NCBI GenBank assembly: GCA_027046625.1
Contig: JALTXX010000011.1
Location: 18,435 to 29,235, forward strand
Direction of reading: 5' to 3'
Source of the DNA: Candidatus Micrarchaeota archaeon
GTDB lineage: Archaea > Iainarchaeota > Iainarchaeia > JAADDC01
Length of the DNA: 10,801 nucleotides
The notes under the pieces are model-generated. The model saw only the letters and a list, made by a program, of their open reading frames with translations, searched no databases and was not told the DNA's origin. Made by a program: the position numbers and the translations under genes. The stretch's first letter is position 1. Every line of letters begins with the position of its first letter. This document shows, one piece after another, positions 1 through 10,801 of the stretch.

Positions 1-1897
1 CGAATTGCGGGGATAACCCGCGGGAACCCGGGGAATTGAAACATCTTAGTACCCGGAGGAAAAGAAAGCAAACGCGATGCCGTGAGTAGGGGCGACCGAA
101 AGCGGCACAGCCCAAACCGAACCCCGGAGGGATAACCTTCGGGGGATGTGGTGTAATGTGGGCCGGGGGCACTCCCGACCACGGGTAGCCGAACTCCGGT
201 GGAAGTCCGGGGCCGAAGAGGGTGATAGCCCCGTAGGCGAAACCGTGGGGGAGATTCCCCGTGTCCCTGAGTACCGGGCGTTGGGACTCGCTCGGGAAGT
301 AGGGGGAAACTCGCCCCCAAGGCTAAATACTCCCCGAGTCCGATAGCGTACGAGTACCGTGAGGGAAAGCTGAAAAGTAGGGGTGGAACCCCGGTGAAAA
401 GAGCCTGAAACCAGCCGGGGATATGAGGTGCAGCGGGAAAGGATAATCCCCTGGAAGGAAGCCGGGGAAACCCGGTTGTACGACAGGGGATACCGCCGTT
501 GCACCGTCAGTCATGAATCACTGGCCGGGGAGTTCACCCGAGTGGCGAGCCTAAGGGGGTCAGCCCCGGAGGCGCAGGGAAACCGAGTGTCCCGCAGGGG
601 GTATCCCCCGAGGGGACCGGGTCTAAAATGGGCCCACAGTCACTCGGGTGAGACCCGAAGCCCGGCGATCTAGCCCGCGGCAGGGTGAAGCGGGTCATCA
701 GACCCGTGGAGGCCCGATACCGGTGCTGGTCTAACCGCTCGGGTGACCGCAGGGCTAGGGGCGAAAGACCAATCGAGCCGGGCGATAGCGGGCCCCCGCC
801 GAAATAGCCCTCAGGCTAGCCCGCCCTGAGGTTGTCCGGTGGGTAGAGCTACTGACTGGACCGGCACGGGGAGAATATCCCCACCGGTCCTGTCAAACTC
901 CGAACCGCCGGACTCCGTAGACGGGCGGAGTAGGGGACGGGGGGTAAGCTCCCGTTCCGAGAGGGGAACAACCCAGACCCGGGTTAAGGCCCCAAAGTGC
1001 CGGCTAAGTGCATCAAAGGATGTCCCCCTCCTGAGACAGCGGGGAGGTAGGCTTAGAAGCAGCCATCCTCTAAGGAGTGCGTAAAAGCTCACCCGCCGAG
1101 GAGGGAGGCGCCGAAGATGGACGGGGCTCAAGCCGGCCGCCGAGACCCGGGGGAGGGACCGGTGGTCCCTATCCCGTAGGCGGGCGTCCCGATGGCGTAG
1201 AAGGAGGGCCGTGAGGTCCTCTGGAGCCGTCGGGAATGAGGATCCCGGCGCTAGTAGCAACAAAGAGGGGTGAGAATCCCCTCCGCCGGAAGGGCCAGGG
1301 TTCCTCGGCACTGATCCTCAACCGAGGGTGAGTCGGTCCTAAGCCGGGTGGTAACACCTCCCCGGCGAAAGGGAAAGGGGTTAATATTCCCCTACCGTCC
1401 GGGTAGGTGCGGCAACGCAAGCCCAGCCCCCGACGCCTCGGGGTAGGCCGACACGGGTCGTCGCCCGTGCCAAACGGGATAGGCCCCTGGAGAGCCGTAA
1501 AGGCGAGAAAGGGGCCAAACCGTGACGGGGCGGGGTTTCCCGCTTCGGCTGATCCCTGGGGCCCGTGAAAAGGGGGTTGGGAACGATCCCGGACGACCGT
1601 ACCGAGAACGAGGACACGTGCCCCTGGCTGAGAAGGCCAAGGCGTGGCGGGTAACTCCGGCCGAGGGAATTCGGCAAACTGGCCCCGTATCTTCGGTAGA
1701 AGGGGTGCCTGCGGTCGTGGTAGCCCCACGAACCGCAGGTGGCACTGACAAGGGGGGTCCGACTGTTTATCAAAAACACAGGTCCCTGCTAGGCCGAAAG
1801 GCTTGGAACAGGGGCCGACGCCTGCTCACTGCCGGTACGTGAAGCCCGGGTACAACCGGGTGAAGCGCCGGTGAAGAGCGGGCCTAACCCTGAGGCT
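1..1897 (+). rRNA. rrl: 23S rRNA, 5' exon (true 5' end lies upstream of the window)
   Basis: Conserved LSU motifs: GAATTGAAACATCTTAGTACCC near 33, GAGTACCGTGAGGGAAAG near 352, GTPase centre GGCTTAGAAGCAGCCATCC...GCGTAAAAGCTCAC near 1050-1092, GGGAATTCGGCAAA near 1665, and helix 69 GGGCCTAACCCTGAGGCT ending at 1897. Confidence 0.98.
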
Positions 1898-2017
1898 CGA
1901 CCTTAAGGGCCTCACAAAACCCCGCTATATGCTGGGATCCCGCTGAGCCGCGCCGGTCCCGAGGAGGGAACAAACCGGCGTTAGGCAGATGATGGGGAAC
2001 CAGCAGGGAAGCACCAC

Positions 2018-2024
2018 GGAGGTG
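2018..2024 (+). promoter_or_regulatory. Shine-Dalgarno sequence GGAGGTG for the intron ORF
   Basis: GGAGGTG lies 6 nt before the TTG at 2031. Its GGAG part belongs to the 5' strand of P6a. Confidence 0.75.
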
Positions 2025-2030
2025 TAAGCC

Positions 2031-2567
2031 TTGGAAGGAACAAACATCAGGAAATACTACAGGAAAAGAAAACGATTCTTTGATTATATTGCAGGTTTTG
2101 TGGATGCAGGCGGAAGTTTCACAGTTAGCATAAAAAAGGGGGAAACAAGGTGGGGTTACGCAGTAGACCCAGAGTTCAAGATAAGCGTCAGAAAAGAGGA
2201 TGCAGAGGTTCTTTACCTCATCAGTGAAGCCTTACAGTGCGGAAAAATATACAGGAAACCAGGCAGCAGCCAGCTAATGTTTGTAGTGAAGGACAAGAGA
2301 ACCCTTAAGGAGAAGATCCTGCCCTTCTTCAGAAGGCACCCATTAATTGTAAAGCAAAAAGAGTTACAGATCTTCAGCGATATCGTGGAAAGGCTAAACA
2401 AAGGGGAACATCTCACAAAGGAGGGTTTCATCAGGGTATTAAGGCTTGCTGAGAAGCTTAGGAAACTACACAGAAAGGGAAAAAGCAGCTATAACATAGA
2501 GAGGATTATAGAAGAGCTCCGTGGTGCCCCTCAGAGACCATACGCGGGGCGCCCCGAAAAGGGATAG
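2031..2567 (+). CDS. Intron-encoded single-motif LAGLIDADG protein, I-CeuI-like, probably nuclease-deficient
   Basis: YIAGFVDAGGSF motif. The blocks VDPEF, VLYL, GKIYRKPGS and EKILPFF parallel I-CeuI (VDPEF, VLYL, GRIRHKSGS, EKVIPFY, as recalled), which is the L1923 intron enzyme. TTG start with an SD; A-rich ORF inserted in loop L6. Confidence 0.92.
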   Translation: MEGTNIRKYYRKRKRFFDYIAGFVDAGGSFTVSIKKGETRWGYAVDPEFKISVRKEDAEVLYLISEALQCGKIYRKPGSSQLMFVVKDKRTLKEKILPFFRRHPLIVKQKELQIFSDIVERLNKGEHLTKEGFIRVLRLAEKLRKLHRKGKSSYNIERIIEELRGAPQRPYAGRPEKG

Positions 2568-2623
2568 CATCCCGAAAGGGGCGATGATATGGTCCACCCC
2601 CACGGGAAACCGTGGGAGAGGGG

Positions 2624-3627
2624 CTTAAGGTAGCGTAATACCTCGCCGCTTAATTGGCGGCTTGCATGAAGGGCGTAACGAGACCCCCGCTGTCCCCGGC
2701 CGGAACCCGGCGAACGCACTTGGTGGTGTACATGCCACCGACCCCCGACGGGAGGTGAAGACCCCGTGGAGCTTTACCGCAGCCTGGCGTTGCCCGTGGG
2801 GTTCCTGTGCTCAGCGTAGGCGGGAGCCGTCGAAGCGGGGTCTTCGGGCCCCGTGGAGGCGCCCATGAGACACCGCCCACAGGAACTTCACGGGCTTACC
2901 CCGAAAGGGGGACATCGTCAGGTGGGCGGTTTGGCTGGGGCGGCACGCCGCTGATAAGGCATCAGCGGCGCCCAAAGGTCGGCTCAGGCGGGTCAGAAAT
3001 CCGCCGTAGAGTGCAAGGGCAGAAGCCGGCTTGACGGTGCTCCCAACAGCAGGGGGCGCCGAGGGGAAACCCGGGCCTAGCGAACCACAGGCTGGCACGA
3101 GTGGCCGCCTGTGCTGTCGGAGAAGTTACCCCGGGGGTAACAGAGTGGTCGCGGGCGAGAGCCCACATCGACCCCGCGGTTTGCTGCTCCGATGTCGGCT
3201 CGTGGTATCCTGGCCGTGCAGAAGCGGCCAAGGGTAGGGTTGTTCACCCGTTAAAACCGCACGTGAGCTGGGTTAAGTACGGCGCGAGCCAGTACGGTTA
3301 CTATCTGTCGGGGGTGTTGGCCGCCTGAGGGGAAGCTCCGCCAAGTACGAAAGGAACGGCGGGGCGCGGCCTCTGGTGGACCGGTTGTCCGACAGGGCAC
3401 TGCCGGGTAGCTACGCCGTAGGGGATAACCGCTGAAGGCATCTAAGCGGGAAGCCCTCCCCGAAAAATAGGCGGCCGTTCGTCTGTTGGGGAGCTTCGGC
3501 TCTCCGGCAGACGACGAGGGCTCCGGCAGAACACCGGGTTGATAGGCGCCGGGTGTACGGCGGAAGGGTTTCCGACCGCCTCAGCCCTGGCGTACTAATC
3601 GCCCGAGCTGTACCCTCGGTCCGGACC
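2624..3627 (+). rRNA. rrl: 23S rRNA, 3' exon (3' end approximate)
   Basis: CTTAAGGTAGCG, GAAGACCCCGTGGAGCTTTAC, P-loop GGCTGGGGCGG, PTC ...TAACAG and CGATGTCGGCTC, A-loop TGTTC, sarcin-ricin loop AGTACGAAAGGA at 3344-3355, GCTGAAGGCATCTAAGC, and TACTAATCGCCCGAG near 3593. Confidence 0.97.
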
Positions 3628-3687: not shown

Positions 3688-4310
3688 CCAGCCAAGAATC
3701 AATCACTCAAGCATGCACCACTCAAGGAGATTATACCACCGAAGAGCCGTGGAAAGTTATCAAAAGAAGGTTTGGTGATCCTCACCTAGCATACATGGTG
3801 TATACATCTCTACAAGGAGGCTCTGCAAAACAACATCCCAGAGAACTCATCAAAAAGGCGTTGACCCAGATGATCAAAAACGCTAGGGGCGTACTTTTCG
3901 AAGTAGTCCTTCCAAAGGCAGGCTTGGAAGCAATTATAAACAACGTAAAAGAAGGAGAGCTGTACCACCATGGCGGAAGAAAGGAAAAGTTCAGACAAAC
4001 GATTATTCCTCAAGACAAGAACTTTGGATGGTGGGTCTTCGAACAGACGCTGCATGATAAAAGAGGGAAGGTACTGGCTCACCAGAGGGCACTTATTCCC
4101 ACTCTCTTAAATGAAGAAGCCTTTCTAAATCTGCTAAGAGAGATTGGGAGAGAGATTAAGAAGAAAGTAAAAATTGTAGATGTTAGAGACAGGGATTCCC
4201 ACAAACCACCGGGGAAGGAGTATGCACACTGGTACCTCATCACAACAGAAGAGGTAAAGCACCCCTATAGGGAAAGTAGGGTCTTGGAAAGGGTCCTAGT
4301 CAGACAATAA
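3678..4310 (+). pseudogene. Probable 5'-truncated class I SAM-dependent methyltransferase-like gene (called ORF 3795-4310)
   Basis: The frame is open from 3678 and reads ...QGDYTTEEPWKVIKRRFGDPHLAYMVYTSL...ALTQMIKNARGVLFEVV..., resembling the post-motif-I half of a Rossmann methyltransferase. There is no GxGxG motif I and no good start upstream of 3795. The assignment is by eye only. Confidence 0.4.
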
Positions 4311-4414: not shown

Positions 4415-5179
4415 ATGAATCCCGCCACCCTATACAACAGCATCATAGAAGAGCTCAAAGCAAGAGAAAGGGATGGGGTGTGGACCCTATTTAATGATCC
4501 TCATCCGCTCCCTACTGCTGGTGCTGTACTACTTCTTTGCACAGAAGGTTACTGCAAGAACCACTATATAGACTCTATAAAGAAAGTAGCAGAGGAGGCA
4601 ACAGATGCAGAAAGTCTAAGATACGTAGCTCTTGCCTTGTATAGGTTGGGATTGCCAACTAAGAGGGCGGAAGACAAGCTAAAGAGGCTATATAAAGATG
4701 GTATGTGGAGGATAAACATGAAACTTCCGCCTGATCCTCTAACCACCTCCGCCATACTTGTTTCCCTTCACAACACACCCCTACTAAAAAAGGAAAGAAG
4801 GGCTGCCATTGAGCGCATAAAAGAGGAGAATAGGCTGCCGGAAGACATTGAGAGGCTAATAGGTGGACAAAGGCCTATCATATTAAACCTTTACAGGGCT
4901 TTGGCCCTTTCTCTATATGGAAAAGAGGAGGCAAAAGGGATATGGAATAGTATAAAAACCAAAGAACTAGTAGATCTACCCCCAAAAGTATACTTAGACA
5001 GGGGAATAAGGGAGGACAGACATTACCCAGCAGTGCTCTCCGCACTCTTGGCAAAAACCATGAAAGAAAATGTAGACAGATATCTGGAACCCTTCAAACG
5101 ACTTAACATAAAAAGGGAAGATAATGCTAGGCTCGTAACATTTGGATTCTATTTAGGGAAGTTACTTGAAAGGATTTAG
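4415..5179 (+). CDS. Hypothetical protein with prenyltransferase/terpene-cyclase-like (QW-like) alpha/alpha-barrel repeats
   Basis: 254-aa ORF with two repeats, LKARERDGVWTLFNDPHPLPTAGAVLLL and LKRLYKDGMWRINMKLPPDPLTTSAILVSL. GAGGTG at 4398-4403 is a possible SD. Confidence 0.65.
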   Translation: MNPATLYNSIIEELKARERDGVWTLFNDPHPLPTAGAVLLLCTEGYCKNHYIDSIKKVAEEATDAESLRYVALALYRLGLPTKRAEDKLKRLYKDGMWRINMKLPPDPLTTSAILVSLHNTPLLKKERRAAIERIKEENRLPEDIERLIGGQRPIILNLYRALALSLYGKEEAKGIWNSIKTKELVDLPPKVYLDRGIREDRHYPAVLSALLAKTMKENVDRYLEPFKRLNIKREDNARLVTFGFYLGKLLERI

Positions 5180-5390: not shown

Positions 5391-6560
5391 ATGATTATCA
5401 GAAGGGTGGAGTTGGACAGAATCCTTAATGGAGATAGACTGCTCCTCTATGGAAGAAGGAAAACAGGCAAGACATTTTACACACTCTACAAAAAGAAAGA
5501 CTGGGATTACGCCATAGTAAGATCAAGAAATGCAGTTTTAGTTGGTGATACAACCATGGACATAAACTCTTTTCTTGTGTACGCAAGGAAGGTAGACAGC
5601 ATAGTGATTGATGAGTTTCATAGGGCAGATCCCGTATTATTTGATGCACTTCAAGCTCACAAGCTCCCAGAAAATACCATACTAATTACATCCACAATGC
5701 ATCTCTTTAGGCAGAGGGAGGCATACTCTAAAATACTTGGCCTCCTCCCCGAACATAAGGTACCCCTCATATCTCCAGTGGATCTGGTTAGAGTCCTTCA
5801 GGGCGAGAGTCTCGAAAACGTCCTATTTTGGCAGGAGCCCACACAGATAGGACAAACCCTTGAAGATATACTTAGAAGTGGAAGGCTTTTTGTTCGGGAA
5901 CTCGTAGGAGAGATCCTTACAGAAGAAGACATCGCCATTCATAAGAAGATGGAGGGCATTCTGCTTGCCACTGCTGGCTCCACCACAAAACTCACAGATA
6001 TTGCAGGAACTTTAGCAAGATTTGGTTATATAGATAGGGCTGAGACTGGGCTCATAACCCCCTATATTGATACAGCAATAAAGATCGGGCTCATAGAGAG
6101 AGTTCCCCTCTTTGGAAAGAGAAGAGGTAGTCTTTACAGACATACCTCACCACTAACAGACTTGTTCTACTACCTTGACAAGAAATATGGCATCTTTGAG
6201 AGAGATTTACCCATTAAATTCCTTCTTAAGGTAATAAAGAAGAGGATTTCCTTCTATGTGGAACGCTTTGTTGAACAACTACTTGCAGAACTTTATGGAC
6301 TTCAACCAGTAAAATGTTTGAAACCAGAGGTAGACATTCTTCTCCTAGAATTCAAGAAGCCGAAGATTGTGGGGGAGGTGAAGTGGAAGGATAAGATAAC
6401 AAAGAGGGAGGTTAGGGAGGTGGAGGAGAAGCTGGAAATATTTGAAGGGGCGAGAAAGATCCTCTTTGTGAAGGATGCTTCCTCTGTGCCAGAAACAGAG
6501 CTGGAGGTGTGGGATGTGGAGAGGATTGGGGAGGAGGCGATAAAAATATCTAAGGATTGA
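5391..6560 (+). CDS. Archaeal ATPase (COG1672-like, STAND-related) with winged helix and C-terminal DUF234/PD-(D/E)XK nuclease-like domain
   Basis: Walker A YGRRKTGKT, Walker B IVIDEFHR, wHTH-like TTKLTDIA...YIDTAIKIGLIERVP, and nuclease motif EVDILLL...GEVKW. Confidence 0.9.
   Translation: MIIRRVELDRILNGDRLLLYGRRKTGKTFYTLYKKKDWDYAIVRSRNAVLVGDTTMDINSFLVYARKVDSIVIDEFHRADPVLFDALQAHKLPENTILITSTMHLFRQREAYSKILGLLPEHKVPLISPVDLVRVLQGESLENVLFWQEPTQIGQTLEDILRSGRLFVRELVGEILTEEDIAIHKKMEGILLATAGSTTKLTDIAGTLARFGYIDRAETGLITPYIDTAIKIGLIERVPLFGKRRGSLYRHTSPLTDLFYYLDKKYGIFERDLPIKFLLKVIKKRISFYVERFVEQLLAELYGLQPVKCLKPEVDILLLEFKKPKIVGEVKWKDKITKREVREVEEKLEIFEGARKILFVKDASSVPETELEVWDVERIGEEAIKISKD
6370..6431 (+). 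repeat. Direct repeat block 1, copy A (copy B at 7600-7661)
   Basis: 61/62 nt identical; the single mismatch is 6406 G versus 7636 A. Confidence 0.95.
6474..6526 (+). repeat. Direct repeat block 2, copy A (copy B at 7719-7771; partial copy at 5311-5343)
   Basis: 53/53 nt identical between copies A and B; the last 33 nt are also present at 5311-5343. Confidence 0.95.
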
Positions 6561-6590: not shown

Positions 6591-7802
6591 ATGCCAATTA
6601 TAATAAGAAGGAGAACCCTTGAAGAAAGATGGGAGAGGACAAGCAGCAGGAGACTAGTATATGGAAGGAGGAAAACAGGGAAGAGCTTCTTTGTGAGGGA
6701 GTTTACAGAGTGGGATAAGTATTATCTAGTAGGGAGAGGGGGTTATGTTTGGGATATAGAGAAGAGAGGAAGGAAGTTCACCTATGAGGAATTCTTAAAT
6801 ATCTTTCCAGAGGTCTGTGAAGGCGCGGTTGTGGACGAGTTCCACAGGTTACCAACAAGTTTTCTTGATCAGATACAGGCGTATCAGCCAAAGGAGATCA
6901 CTCTCGTGACTTCCACCCTTCACCTTGCCAAGGAGCTAGTCTCAGGAAATTCTCCCATAATGGGAATGTTTTCAGAGATAGAGGTGGGACTTATCTCACC
7001 TCTTGATGTTCTAAGAGATATATCGGAGTATTATGATGGAAGGGAGCTACTAGAGATGGCAGTGTACTTAAGGGAACCATTGCTTCTTGAGTACGTACCA
7101 GAGAGGGGTCTCAGAGACGTATTACATAATGGTCTAAGACACGCCGAAAGAATCGTGTCCGAAATCTTTACCGAGGAAGAAAAAAGGTATACAAAGTCTT
7201 ATAGGGCCGTTCTTCTGGCAATTACCCAAGGAACCACAAAATTCTCCCAGATAATAAACGAAATAGTGAAAGAAGCTGGTGTTTCTCCTACTGCAGCTTC
7301 CTACTATATCCAGATGTTAGTAGACATGGGAATAATAAGGAGAATTCCTGTCTTTGGCGAAAGAAAATCTGTTTATAGGCATGTGTCATCCCTCTTGGAT
7401 CTCTACTACTATCTAGAAGGTAAATACGGAATTTCAGATCTTTGGCTAGTCCAAGAAGATGAGCTGACAACTCTCTTACCTAGACATGTAGAGTGGTTCG
7501 CTGAGGATTATTTCTCTGAGCTATATGGGCTAAGACCGGTGAAGATATTAAAGCCTGAGGTGGATATTGCTCTTGTAAGGTTTAATAGACTTGCTTTTCT
7601 GGGGGAGGTGAAGTGGAAGGATAAGATAACAAAGAAGGAGGTTAGGGAGGTGGAGGAGAAGTTTAGTGAGGTGGAGAAAAGGTTTGGGGAGGTGGAGAGA
7701 AAGGTACTGGTGGTGCCTGATGCTTCCTCTGTGCCAGAAACAGAGCTGGAGGTGTGGGATGTGGAGAGGATGAGAAGAGCTGTCAACCTGACGAGTAACT
7801 AG
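6591..7802 (+). CDS. Second archaeal ATPase-wHTH-DUF234/PD-(D/E)XK paralog
   Basis: Walker A YGRRKTGKS, Walker B AVVDEFHR, wHTH-like TTKFSQII...YYIQMLVDMGIIRRIP, and EVDIALV...GEVKW. Confidence 0.9.
   Translation: MPIIIRRRTLEERWERTSSRRLVYGRRKTGKSFFVREFTEWDKYYLVGRGGYVWDIEKRGRKFTYEEFLNIFPEVCEGAVVDEFHRLPTSFLDQIQAYQPKEITLVTSTLHLAKELVSGNSPIMGMFSEIEVGLISPLDVLRDISEYYDGRELLEMAVYLREPLLLEYVPERGLRDVLHNGLRHAERIVSEIFTEEEKRYTKSYRAVLLAITQGTTKFSQIINEIVKEAGVSPTAASYYIQMLVDMGIIRRIPVFGERKSVYRHVSSLLDLYYYLEGKYGISDLWLVQEDELTTLLPRHVEWFAEDYFSELYGLRPVKILKPEVDIALVRFNRLAFLGEVKWKDKITKKEVREVEEKFSEVEKRFGEVERKVLVVPDASSVPETELEVWDVERMRRAVNLTSN
7647..7704 (+). repeat. Imperfect 21-nt in-frame tandem repeat (about 2.8 units)
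   Basis: GAGGTGGAGGAGAAGTTTAGT / GAGGTGGAGAAAAGGTTTGGG / GAGGTGGAGAGAAAGG, encoding EVEEKFS-EVEKRFG-EVERK. Confidence 0.75.
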
Positions 7803-8515
7803 TTCACAACCTCCACCATACCAAATCCTAAAGCTGTCCTCTCTCCAAAACCAGCCTTATATCCTACCTCAAGTAGCTTGGGTGTTCCACTTACAGTAAA
7901 GGTAAACATCCATCCAACATTCCATGTATCTTTTACCCTTATGCGTTTTCTCTGTATGTGTGAGATATGCAGTACCTCAAAGAGAGGATTTCTAAGGGAT
8001 TCTCCAAGGAAGAGTTCACACTTCTTTACAAGGTTCTCCTTCATGTGTATGAAAAACTCCTTCTCTAGAGGGGATAAGTCCCTGTGGGGGTTGGTTTTAT
8101 CCTTTGAGTAGCCCCTTAGGAGGATGGGAGAGAGCGTTTTAAAGGTCATTATGGGAGAGAAGGATGGTTCCTTCACTAAATGCGCATCCTCAATGTAAAA
8201 GGTTGTTCTTCCTATCCTTATATCCCTTTTCCTTGCCACACCTGCAAGAAATGCTGCACCTACCTCTTTGTCTATGGTGGAGAAGAACAGTGTATAGGTA
8301 TCTCCTTTTAGCAGCAGCCCACCTTCACTCTGTTCATACTTTCCAAAGAGCCAAGAAAATGTATATGGTTTTGGAAGTGATGTCTTATGAAGGTAAACGG
8401 CCATTTTTGGGTTGCCCTCCCCTATAATATTGTAAATAGCCCCTGAAAGCTTGTACATATAATCCCAGGGTATCTTATTTCCTTCCTTTGGTAGAAGGGT
8501 AAGCTTCACTCTCAT
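7799..8515 (-). CDS. cas6: CRISPR-associated endoribonuclease Cas6
   Basis: MRVKLTL N-terminus (ATG 8515 preferred to 8557). IYNII...NPKMAVYLHKTSLPKPYTFS carries the Tyr/His/Lys triad of Pyrococcus furiosus Cas6, and the C-terminal glycine-rich loop is GFGERTALGFG. Confidence 0.95.
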   Translation of the reverse strand: MRVKLTLLPKEGNKIPWDYMYKLSGAIYNIIGEGNPKMAVYLHKTSLPKPYTFSWLFGKYEQSEGGLLLKGDTYTLFFSTIDKEVGAAFLAGVARKRDIRIGRTTFYIEDAHLVKEPSFSPIMTFKTLSPILLRGYSKDKTNPHRDLSPLEKEFFIHMKENLVKKCELFLGESLRNPLFEVLHISHIQRKRIRVKDTWNVGWMFTFTVSGTPKLLEVGYKAGFGERTALGFGMVEVVN

Positions 8516-8540
8516 ACTAAACAAAACTAAGAGAAAGTAT

Positions 8541-10801
8541 TTATCTATCCATACCAAACGATCTCAAAACCTTCACCTTTACTAAATCGTTTATTAGTAC
8601 CCACAGAGCAGCGTAAATCCATACAAAGGCAACCAACAACCAGCCTATCGGCTGCACAAACACCCCCATTGCTGCAAGAATGCTACCTATCATATCTGTA
8701 ATTAGTACTGCAGCCAGCAGCCTCCTATCTGGATAAGGTCTTTCCCACACATAACCTCTGGACCGAGAGATAAGAAGTGTGAAATGCCCTGCAACCACTA
8801 GTTTTAGAAAGATAAGTGTTTGAATTGCTTCCATAGGAAGGTGTAATACTTCAAAGGCTATGTACAAAAGCAGTGCAGAGCTGATTAGGCCTATAACACC
8901 CAATATAGTAGCTAACATCACCAACCTCTTAGGCTGCCACCTTAGGGGTCTTTGAGACTCAGACACATTGTCAAATGCTATGGTAAGAATAGGTAAATCA
9001 TTTAGGAGTGCCAAAAGTATGACCATTGTGCTGTTAATAGGGTAAAAATCGAACAACAATATGGAGGTAGCCAAAAATAGCAGAATTCTTATGGTTTCTG
9101 TGAGTCTGTAGATTACATAGCTTTCCATCCTCCTAAATATCCTTCTTGCTGTGCGAAAGGCGTCCGATATAACAGATATTCCTGGTTCTAGCAATACTAT
9201 CGAGGCAGCCTGAATTGCCGCCCCGGTAGCACCCGCAACAGCTATTCCACAGTTGGATTTCTTAAGGGCGGGTACATCATTTATTCCGTCGCCCGTCATT
9301 GCTACTAGGTGTCCTGTCTCTTGTAATAGCCCTACTATTCTATATTTATCATCTGGCAACACCTCTGAAAAGATATCAAATTCATTTACTGCCTTTACCA
9401 TGTCGTGTCTGTGCATCTTTCTCAGCTTAGCTGCACTTAGAACCTTCTCTCCTATTCCTACAAGTTTACCTATAAATCTAGCTACGCTGGAGTGGTCCCC
9501 CGTTATCATCTTTACAGTAACACCCATCTTCTTGATAGAAGCCACAGCCTGGGCAGCATCTGGCCTAGGAGGATCGTATAAGCCTATAACACCTATTAGT
9601 TTATAACCTTCCCCAAAATCAACAGCTACGGCTATGGATCTAAATCCCTTTTCGGCAAATTCGTCCACCACATTTCTCATATCTTCTTCTACATCCTCTT
9701 TATTTCTAGAAATAGCCAGTATTACCTGGGGTGCCCCCTTTGTTACTCTTATCTTTTTTCCCTTCCAAATCACCTCAGCCTCTGTGCGCTTTAACTCCGG
9801 GGAGAAGGGACGGTAGTATAGCACCGTTACTTTCGGCTTCTTTACCCGTGACAATATAGCATCGTCTATGGGGTCTTTATCTTCTTCTCTAGACGCTAGT
9901 GAGGCATAAATGAGGACTTCTTCCTTACTAAATCCTCCGATGGGATACACATCGCCTACTTCTATCCTGTTTAGTGTTATAGTACCCGTTTTATCCGTGC
10001 ATAACACATCTACGCTTGCAAGCTCTTCTATCGAGACAAGCTTTGTAACTATGGCGTTCCTTCTGGCAAGCTCAAGCGCACCAACTACCATGGTTATAGA
10101 CAACACGGCAGGCAGGGCAGCCGGAATAGACGCCACCGCCAGTACAAGGGAAAATTTCAGCACCGACAGAACGTCTTTTCCTCTAATAAGGGTTTCAACT
10201 ATTATCATTATACCTATTACCAACAGAGCGAGAAACATTAGGTAGTTGCCCATCCTTATAACGGCTTTTTGGAGCTCGCTCTGCACTTCAGTCTCATTAA
10301 CAAGCTGCACGGACTTTCCGAAGTAGGTACTGGTTCCCGTTCCTATTACAACAGCTATAGCATCTCCTCTTCTCACGGTAGAGCCAGAGTATACTATGGC
10401 ACCCTCCTGTTTTGGCACGGGCAGAGACTCACCAGTAAGCACAGATTCGTCTACCTCTAACTCTCCCTCAACAATTCTCGAATCTGCTGGCACTATATCC
10501 CCGGGGCGTAACTTTATAACGTCTCCAGGCACCAACAATCTGGCATCTATTACTTTCCATCTGCCGTCTCTAAGAACACGGGACTTTACCGCCATTTGCT
10601 TTTTGAGATACCCTATGACATTTTCCGCCTTCCACTCCTGCCAGAACTCTACTACTGCGTTTATAAGTAGAAGAAGCAGTATAATCCAGAAATCAACCAT
10701 GTCTCCAACAAGGAAGGATAATAATAGTGCCAGCTCTATCATCCAAGGTATGGGCCCCCAGAAGTATGAGAGTATCTTTAAAATTAGATGTTTCTTCTTC
10801 T
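8541..10801 (-). CDS. P-type IIIA plasma-membrane H+-ATPase (5' end outside the window)
   Basis: TGES, phosphorylation motif DKTGT, KGAP, DPPR, MITGD, GDGIND, IIIA-type ASIPAALP, YVIYR and LLND. The frame stays open upstream of 10742 (KKKHLILKILSYFWGPIPWMIE), so the real start is beyond the edge. Confidence 0.95.
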   Translation of the reverse strand, partial: KKKHLILKILSYFWGPIPWMIELALLLSFLVGDMVDFWIILLLLLINAVVEFWQEWKAENVIGYLKKQMAVKSRVLRDGRWKVIDARLLVPGDVIKLRPGDIVPADSRIVEGELEVDESVLTGESLPVPKQEGAIVYSGSTVRRGDAIAVVIGTGTSTYFGKSVQLVNETEVQSELQKAVIRMGNYLMFLALLVIGIMIIVETLIRGKDVLSVLKFSLVLAVASIPAALPAVLSITMVVGALELARRNAIVTKLVSIEELASVDVLCTDKTGTITLNRIEVGDVYPIGGFSKEEVLIYASLASREEDKDPIDDAILSRVKKPKVTVLYYRPFSPELKRTEAEVIWKGKKIRVTKGAPQVILAISRNKEDVEEDMRNVVDEFAEKGFRSIAVAVDFGEGYKLIGVIGLYDPPRPDAAQAVASIKKMGVTVKMITGDHSSVARFIGKLVGIGEKVLSAAKLRKMHRHDMVKAVNEFDIFSEVLPDDKYRIVGLLQETGHLVAMTGDGINDVPALKKSNCGIAVAGATGAAIQAASIVLLEPGISVISDAFRTARRIFRRMESYVIYRLTETIRILLFLATSILLFDFYPINSTMVILLALLNDLPILTIAFDNVSESQRPLRWQPKRLVMLATILGVIGLISSALLLYIAFEVLHLPMEAIQTLIFLKLVVAGHFTLLISRSRGYVWERPYPDRRLLAAVLITDMIGSILAAMGVFVQPIGWLLVAFVWIYAALWVLINDLVKVKVLRSFGMDR

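Follow-up and report, generated by a model that had tools for sequence, protein, structure and literature searches.

An intronic LAGLIDADG gene of an archaeal 23S rRNA lacks the metal-binding acidic residue: a probable case of recent inactivation

Introduction

That homing-endonuclease genes decay after they have become fixed is textbook knowledge. For the LAGLIDADG genes of rRNA introns, a model in which they are cyclically gained, degenerate, and are lost has been discussed (PMC11270868). Archaeal group I introns of the IB4 subtype have been described at the LSU/1923 position in Micrarchaeota, Pacearchaeota, Thaumarchaeota, and Aigarchaeota, with LAGLIDADG ORFs found in 21 of 39 of them (Nawrocki, Jones and Eddy, 2018; PMC6125680). 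The same rDNA stretch is cut by I-Vdi141I, an enzyme reported to be active, which cleaves at CCTGACTCTC/TTAA/GGTAGCC and whose intron is inserted at L1927, as against 1923 for the intron described here (PMC2602781). Moreover, among the LAGLIDADG maturases covered in a review (PMC3384342), some had lost cleavage via single point changes.

Here, we describe a single-motif LAGLIDADG gene that lies within the 23S rRNA gene of a Candidatus Micrarchaeota archaeon and encodes glycine at the position of the metal-binding acidic residue. The analysis covers a 10,801-nt stretch of DNA, which as a whole is referred to below as the window. Unless stated otherwise, all features lie on its plus strand.

Results

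Host genome and surroundings of the intron

The host assembly comprises 652 kb in 18 contigs and is 94% complete, and at this completeness it contains one 23S rRNA gene and one LAGLIDADG gene. The archaeal 23S rRNA gene occupies positions 1-3618 of the window (Rfam LSU_rRNA_archaea, RF02540, 2479 bits) and is divided into exon 1 (1..1897), where the window begins at position 130 of the Rfam model, and exon 2 (2624..3618), as located by the Rfam match, cmscan, and the intronless relatives. The GC content of the rRNA exons is 64-66%, versus 42-44% for ordinary genes in the rest of the window. Together with the genome size, the rRNA GC content suggests a thermophilic host whose genome has been reduced. 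The sequencing runs in which related sequence occurs carry the labels of hydrothermal-vent and microbial-mat metagenomes.

Downstream of the 23S rRNA gene, two ORFs at 3795-4310 (171 aa) and 4415-5179 (254 aa) gave no match in a Pfam search. These are followed by tandem paralogous genes at 5391-6560 and 6591-7802, whose products (389 and 403 aa) are 40% identical and both carry a GRRKTGK(T/S)F P-loop-like motif; one of the two has a weak HTH_24 match below the Pfam cut-off, and no Pfam family could be assigned to either with confidence. On the minus strand, a Cas6 gene (7802-8557; PF01881, 2.9e-27; PF21350, 2.5e-19) adjoins a P-type ATPase gene (8544-10742; PF00122, 2.8e-51).

Intron boundaries and ribozyme architecture

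A cmscan of the 23S rRNA gene revealed about 731 nt inserted at a single place, with ...GAGGCUC on one side and GUAGCG on the other. In three intronless relatives from the same order (G004, G005, and G008), GAGGCT is joined straight to CTTAAGG, and their sequence reads ...CCCTGAGGCT-CTTAAGGTAGCG..., which is the spliced junction predicted for the window. Contigs having the same joint, from 1897 to 2624, were found in runs X2 and X3 as well. The intron delimited in this way covers 1898..2623 (726 nt), with C1898 as its first base and G2623, the omega-G, as its last. On helix 69 numbering, we take the insertion site to be directly after the U at position 1923 of the E. coli 23S rRNA. This site number agrees with the site label given to the archaeal introns (PMC6125680) and fits the intron of I-Vdi141I, which lies four bases downstream and is labelled L1927 (PMC2602781). 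By its predicted anatomy, what is inserted at this I-CeuI site (L1923) is a group I intron.

For covariation, we used a set of 44 homologous introns, that of the window included, which had been extracted from species-representative genomes. The P1 helix (1892..1913) is formed by exon bases GAGGCU (1892-1897) and the guide GGCCUC (1908-1913), the pair at the 5' splice site being a wobble (U1897-G1908). A perfect 6-bp P1 closing in U-G is present in 42/44 homologous introns, with nine covarying exon/guide pairs, and the two exceptions (L034 and L061) have probably been mis-delimited; the terminal G is found in 43/44. The P10 strand of the internal guide (1901..1907) pairs with the first seven bases of exon 2 (2624-2630), and these seven contiguous pairs are shared by the window and introns L003, L018, L027, L028, and L073, most other introns having fewer. 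The long-range P3 pairing joins CCCCGC at 1920..1925 to GCGGGG at 2544-2549, and is a perfect 6-bp helix in 39 of 42 introns with 15 covarying types.

The open reading frame is enclosed by P6, an 11-bp stem (2011..2021 with 2517-2527) that also appears in the MFE fold; a helix of at least 5 bp is found in the P6 place of 34 out of 40 introns, in 32 different sequences. Beyond it, the J6/7-P7 segment (2531..2543, UCAGAGACCAUAC) contains the 5' strand of P7 (GACCA, 2536-2540) and leads into the 3' strand of P3 (2544-2549). This motif fits the Rfam Intron_gpI consensus and is kept in 38 of the 42 introns searched. Next are the P8 stem-loop (2550..2583), which holds the ORF stop codon TAG (2565-2567), then J8/7 (AUGAUA) with the 3' strand of P7 (UGGUC, 2590-2594) in the segment 2584..2598, and finally the P9 hairpin with its GAAA loop (2599..2616). 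While P8 and P9 are seen in both the MFE fold and the Rfam alignment, J8/7 is placed by the Rfam alignment. Four covarying types of P7 occur, these being GACCA/UGGUC, GACUA/UAGUC, GACUG/CAGUC, and GACUU/AAGUC.

The match to Rfam Intron_gpI (RF00028) extends over 2430-2616 and scores 22.3 bits (E 0.0024). As the ORF interrupts the core, the score falls short of the gathering score of 50; only the 3' half was aligned properly, this part being the 3' core made up of J6/7-P7, P8, J8/7, and P9. The ribozyme core as such is GC-rich (62-65%) and complete in appearance. Moreover, introns from archaeal MAGs have near-identical J3/4 and J8/7 cores.

The intron-encoded LAGLIDADG protein

The single-motif LAGLIDADG gene (2031..2567) is situated inside the P6 loop, starts with TTG, and encodes 178 amino acids. 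Its match to Pfam LAGLIDADG_1 (PF00961) has an E value of 5.1e-17 and a score of 63.1 bits, versus a cut-off of 23.1. A Shine-Dalgarno-like GGAGGTG (2018..2024) is found 6 nt upstream of the TTG, where it overlaps the 5' strand of P6; being inside this stem, it may set translation and ribozyme folding in competition with each other. The protein is basic, with a pI of 10.1 and 41 Lys and Arg residues versus 22 Asp and Glu. All of this bears out the preliminary description, which had made out a full-length intact frame, a basic product, and a strong Shine-Dalgarno sequence. In the G002 homolog, the codon corresponding to the TTG at 2031 is an ATG (L003, position 193).

At its 3' end, the ORF overlaps P6', J6/7-P7, P3', and P8 of the ribozyme with its last 17 codons (from 2514), and this overlap accounts for the conservation of the PQRPYAG tail. 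It is the RNA and not the protein that shapes this end of the ORF. Over the approximately 29-nt ribozyme core CCCCTCAGAGACCATACGCGGGGCGCCCC (window 2514-2567; L003 673-729), we observed that the two homologous ORFs use different frames, their tails being translated as ...APQRPYAGRPEKG in the window and ...APLRDHTRGAPDKG in L003, with a common TAG in the P8 loop.

The AlphaFold model of the protein (pLDDT 84, pTM 0.78) contains the LAGLIDADG core, in which the order of elements (H13-27, E28-36, E43-54, H59-68, E72-75, E81-86, and H89-102) is that of the alpha-beta-beta-alpha-beta-beta-alpha core fold. Foremost among the structural homologs in the PDB was I-Vdi141I (PDB ID: 3e54), with TMq/TMt of 0.80/0.89 and 33% identity. 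I-TnaI (PDB ID: 5gkk) matched with TMq/TMt of 0.73/0.88 and 34% identity, I-CeuI (PDB ID: 2ex5) with a TMq of 0.75 and 24% identity (Foldseek E 4.6e-11; phmmer E 4.5e-15), and several entries of I-CreI with a TMq of 0.75 and about 20% identity; single domains of I-LtrI were also high-ranking (TMq 0.66, 31% identity). The protein had earlier been called I-CeuI-like, with alignment and modelling against I-CeuI proposed. The name is apt for the insertion site, and the fold does match that of I-CeuI; however, I-Vdi141I and I-TnaI, from archaea and Thermotoga, stand closer to it in both sequence and fold.

The metal-binding position

In the window protein, the LAGLIDADG motif reads YIAGFVDAGGSF, and its helix (13-27 in the model) ends with codon 27 (GGC, 2109..2111), where Gly stands at the position of the metal-binding Asp or Glu. 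In the alignments of the five best matches among solved enzymes in the PDB, Glu or Asp lies opposite Gly27. Here, residue 27 corresponds by alignment coordinates (query 18 to I-LtrI 175) to Glu184 of I-LtrI, a residue named as metal-binding (PMC6294521).

To see how far this position is conserved, we drew on a HMMER scan of 1.84 billion representatives, which yielded 2633 matches at E <=0.001. Realignment of the best 150 of these 2633 matches plus 11 homologs from a word search gave 284 domain alignments, with position 27 covered in 279. Asp or Glu occurs in 276 of these 279 domains, Lys in three, and Gly in none, though since 50%-identity representatives hide rare variants, the counts convey the rule and not the frequency of exceptions. 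All 11 of the nearest homologs have Asp or Glu, with Asp in six of them that are 62-86% identical to the window protein. Likewise, Asp or Glu is present at all 80 of the homologous genome loci, though one of the two fetch patterns for these loci required it. The window protein is the sole member of its 90%-identity cluster. As a separate observation, those domains with Lys at the metal-binding position (P0016, P0045, and P0108; 3/279) could be non-cleaving derivatives.

The acidic metal-binding residue, a hallmark of LAGLIDADG_1, is thereby absent from the predicted window protein, and its codon GGC is one transition from the GAC of the relatives, with contigs of diverged relatives in runs X2 and X5 having A at 2110 and hence GAC for Asp. 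On both of these points, the preliminary description had read the sequence correctly.

The residue at position 53

That description had also named Val53 (GTC, 2187..2189) as a second replaced catalytic residue, at a position where Gln was expected and where most homologs do have it. Our comparison does not support a second loss. Among the six closest homologs, all of which keep Asp27, the residue is Val in P0002 and P0003 and Ile in P0004-P0007, whereas the five more distant of the 11 nearest homologs have Gln. In the 284 aligned domains (from the best 150 of the 2633 matches plus the 11 homologs), Gln was counted 143 times, Leu 111, Ile 11, and Val 9, so that Leu, Ile, or Val takes up this position in 131/284. 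Two-motif enzymes mostly have Leu in the N-terminal domain (97/119) and Gln in the C-terminal one (106/119), and active two-domain enzymes have Leu, Met, or Val at position 53 in one domain. Such is the case for I-SmaMI, which has Val in its N-terminal domain and, according to the PDB title, was crystallised with cleaved DNA. In the wider L1923 family, Gln is found at 78/80 genome loci. Since Val53 is a clade trait that coexists with a conserved Asp27, it is not a second decay step, and only one catalytic residue, the one replaced by Gly27, has clearly been lost.

A homodimer of this clade, with Val or Ile at position 53, would have no Gln in either active site. The P0002-P0007 clade of single-motif enzymes, having Val or Ile instead of the usual Gln beside the active site, merits biochemical attention.

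Distribution of the intron

A probe from exon 2 matched seven of 16 genomes of the same order, and the junction was readable in five of these. The intron is patchily distributed, being present in the window genome and in G002 and absent from G004, G005, and G008. The endonuclease gene of G002 is 63% identical and has Asp at position 27. For G006 and G015, the matches are fragments that end short of the junction; the nine genomes without a probe match are 76-89% complete and hence uninformative on the intron.

More widely, the L1923 intron-plus-gene module (L004-L082) was seen in MAGs with the archaeal labels Micrarchaeota, Bathyarchaeota, Nitrososphaeria, Sulfolobales, Brockarchaeota, Hadarchaeum, and Methanoxibalbensis, and also in MAGs labelled as CPR bacteria, Actinomycetota, Planctomycetes, and Omnitrophota. 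At six of the 80 homologous loci (L014, L040, L043, L047, L049, and L075), the tblastn matches contain in-frame stops, which are either decayed copies or assembly errors.

Selection on the protein

When the ORF was compared with contigs from runs X2, X3, and X5, 26 of the 30 differences listed, in a table with 163 further rows, were synonymous and four were non-synonymous (R11K, G27D, K36R, and R40K). In the comparison with L003 (62% identity), synonymous sites are saturated (pS about 1) and dN is 0.27. The family is under strong purifying selection. A search of metagenome contigs for DNA of close homologs (72-86% identity) returned 174 pattern matches, none of which was confirmed, and a 34-nt intron pattern had no match.

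For the window lineage itself, six private changes were found at columns invariant in six relatives, versus 0-4 for P0002-P0006. Tajima counts of the window against P0002 with four outgroups were 14:5, 12:4, 9:7, and 13:4 (p 0.05-0.8), while those against P0003 ranged from 16:10 to 12:10 and were not significant. The terminal branch of the window protein has a length of 0.13, equal to the median of 0.13, compared with 0.061 and 0.092 for its two sisters. At most, these values point to a weak, non-significant excess of amino-acid change. Slight relaxation at most would fit a recent change, and it cannot separate decay from retention; purifying selection may have continued once the change had occurred.

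Discussion

Early decay as the preferred explanation

We consider this locus to be, probably but with room for doubt, a recently inactivated homing-endonuclease gene inside a group I ribozyme that is still essential. Here, the starting point would be a group I intron of the mobile kind, inserted at the I-CeuI site of the sole 23S rRNA gene, with its LAGLIDADG gene accommodated in the P6 loop. The homodimeric enzyme of the relatives would cut the intronless ...GAGGCT/CTTAAGGTAGCG... sequence and so have the intron copied into the site. In the window genome, a single G-for-A change would then have turned the metal-binding Asp27 into Gly, and the homodimer would be left without a carboxylate in both active sites. 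Judged by analogy with other enzymes, the Gly27 protein has most likely kept folding and DNA binding and lost cleavage. As every 23S copy in the genome holds the intron, nothing selects for cleavage, and the loss of Asp27 would be the expected first decay step in a cycle of gain, fixation, degeneration, and loss. The frame would still be open because the change is recent, while the need to splice the rRNA would keep the ribozyme from decaying. The sequences themselves show the anatomy of the locus, a Gly27 found nowhere else among those compared, and an intron that is patchily present; that cleavage was lost, that this happened recently, and that no new role has been taken on is what we infer.

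Group I introns with LAGLIDADG genes at archaeal LSU/1923 sites are already known, as is the decay of such genes, and the finding has little weight alone. What it does offer, modestly, is a clear instance in nature of how inactivation begins, for which relatives that keep Asp and relatives that lack the intron are at hand both within the order and among further runs of vent-type metagenomes.

A possible retained splicing or binding role

The preliminary description had left the choice between early decay and repurposing. Of the two, decay is the one that fits with Gly27 being private and one transition away, with the intact frame, and with an excess of change that is weak at most, while nothing was found in support of repurposing. 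The latter would have a catalytically dead LAGLIDADG dimer kept either as a helper of group I folding at high temperature (a maturase or chaperone) or as a binder of the rDNA site, and we regard it as unlikely. A maturase role is mechanistically possible because the host intron is of group I, the class with known LAGLIDADG maturases, and not of the bulge-helix-bulge kind. An intact frame, a basic protein, a branch that is not strongly accelerated, and the position of the intron in the only 23S rRNA gene, which makes splicing essential, could all be accommodated by such a role. Set against it, Gly27 occurs in one sequence only, a 90%-identity cluster of one, and no clade keeps it; all six close homologs have Asp. 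With no second sequence in the clade carrying a non-acidic residue, nothing indicates that the protein was retained over long periods once the acidic residue had gone. Moreover, the complete-looking, GC-rich core gives no sign of needing help, and to our knowledge the known maturases are two-motif monomers, which also counts against repurposing. In its more specific form, namely that a thermophilic archaeon with a 0.65-Mb genome and a single, essential 23S rRNA gene has retained a Gly27 homodimer to assist the splicing of the group I intron in that gene or to act on it as an RNA chaperone, the proposal is less probable again, and we hold it to be a long shot. If true, it would mean a maturase caught at its origin, on a single-motif scaffold, and in archaea.

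A possible artefact or minority allele

About equally unlikely is that the population mostly has Asp27 and that the G at 2110 arose as an assembly, consensus, or low-depth error. Run X1, the sole run with the window sequence (72% of the sampled words), has a depth of only about 6.5 at 2110, and all relatives have A at this base. Yet the Logan contig of X1, made by a second assembler and 225 nt long (2028-2252, depth 6.5), has a G at 2110 and shows 0 differences from the window, with no alternative letter listed for X1 at this base. This contig rules out an assembler slip. However, X1 may be the source of the genome itself, in which case the check is not independent and concerns the assembly and not the reads; as contigs drop minority alleles, a population mixture is still compatible with it. 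Of the confirmation of base 2110 that had been proposed earlier, the part achieved is thus at the level of the assembly.

A hypothetical still-active endonuclease

A further explanation supposes that the active site of this clade, rebuilt with Val or Ile at position 53 where nearly the whole of the wider L1923 family has Gln, tolerates Gly27 and that the enzyme still cleaves. We deem this improbable to a marked degree, given that Asp27 is conserved in 6/6 of the other clade members, that an acidic residue is present in every active LAGLIDADG enzyme compared, and that the homodimer would lack this residue in both active sites at once.

The rejected alternative of a bulge-helix-bulge intron

Like the introns of I-Vdi141I or I-DmoI, the insertion might be an archaeal bulge-helix-bulge intron that the tRNA-splicing endonuclease cuts. 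This idea has in its favor the archaeal host and the closest solved fold, that of I-Vdi141I from an archaeal intron at L1927, but it can be set aside with hardly any reservation. At the cuts that yield the observed junction, the 4-nt strands are unpaired; the sole canonical arrangement, a 4-bp helix flanked by 3-nt bulges, requires cuts at 1900/2626 and would then place the junction 2 nt off that of the intronless relatives; and covariation backs the group I helices P1, P3, P6, and P7. In this respect, the window intron corrects the default assumption that archaeal rRNA introns are of the bulge-helix-bulge type.

Comparison with known systems

Returning to the early-decay reading, we compared the locus with the described systems nearest to it. 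As in the window, I-CeuI (PDB ID: 2ex5) is a single-motif LAGLIDADG protein from a group I intron of an LSU rRNA, in this case that of the Chlamydomonas chloroplast, and its insertion site is the same, 1923. The two differ in host, chloroplast versus archaeon, and in the residues of interest, with an acidic residue and Gln in I-CeuI as opposed to Gly27 and Val53 in the window protein.

I-Vdi141I (PDB ID: 3e54) and I-TnaI (PDB ID: 5gkk) are, like the window protein, small homodimer-type endonucleases from rRNA introns of thermophiles; the intron of I-Vdi141I, in contrast to that of the window, is of the archaeal type. I-TnaI was compared by its PDB title and fold.

The LAGLIDADG maturases that have lost cleavage, such as that of yeast bI2, resemble the window protein in being encoded by group I introns with an intact frame and in having lost the activity by point change, as far as they are covered in the review (PMC3384342). 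Maturases of the bI2 type, however, have been shown to act in splicing and are conserved in that function, whereas the Gly27 protein is a single sequence.

Closest in setting are the archaeal IB4 introns at LSU/1923, which occupy the same site in the same kind of host, that is, in several small-genome archaeal lineages; the likeness is one of site, of host, and of LAGLIDADG content (PMC6125680). Unlike the set as described in that report, the copy in the window has an endonuclease gene without the acidic residue.
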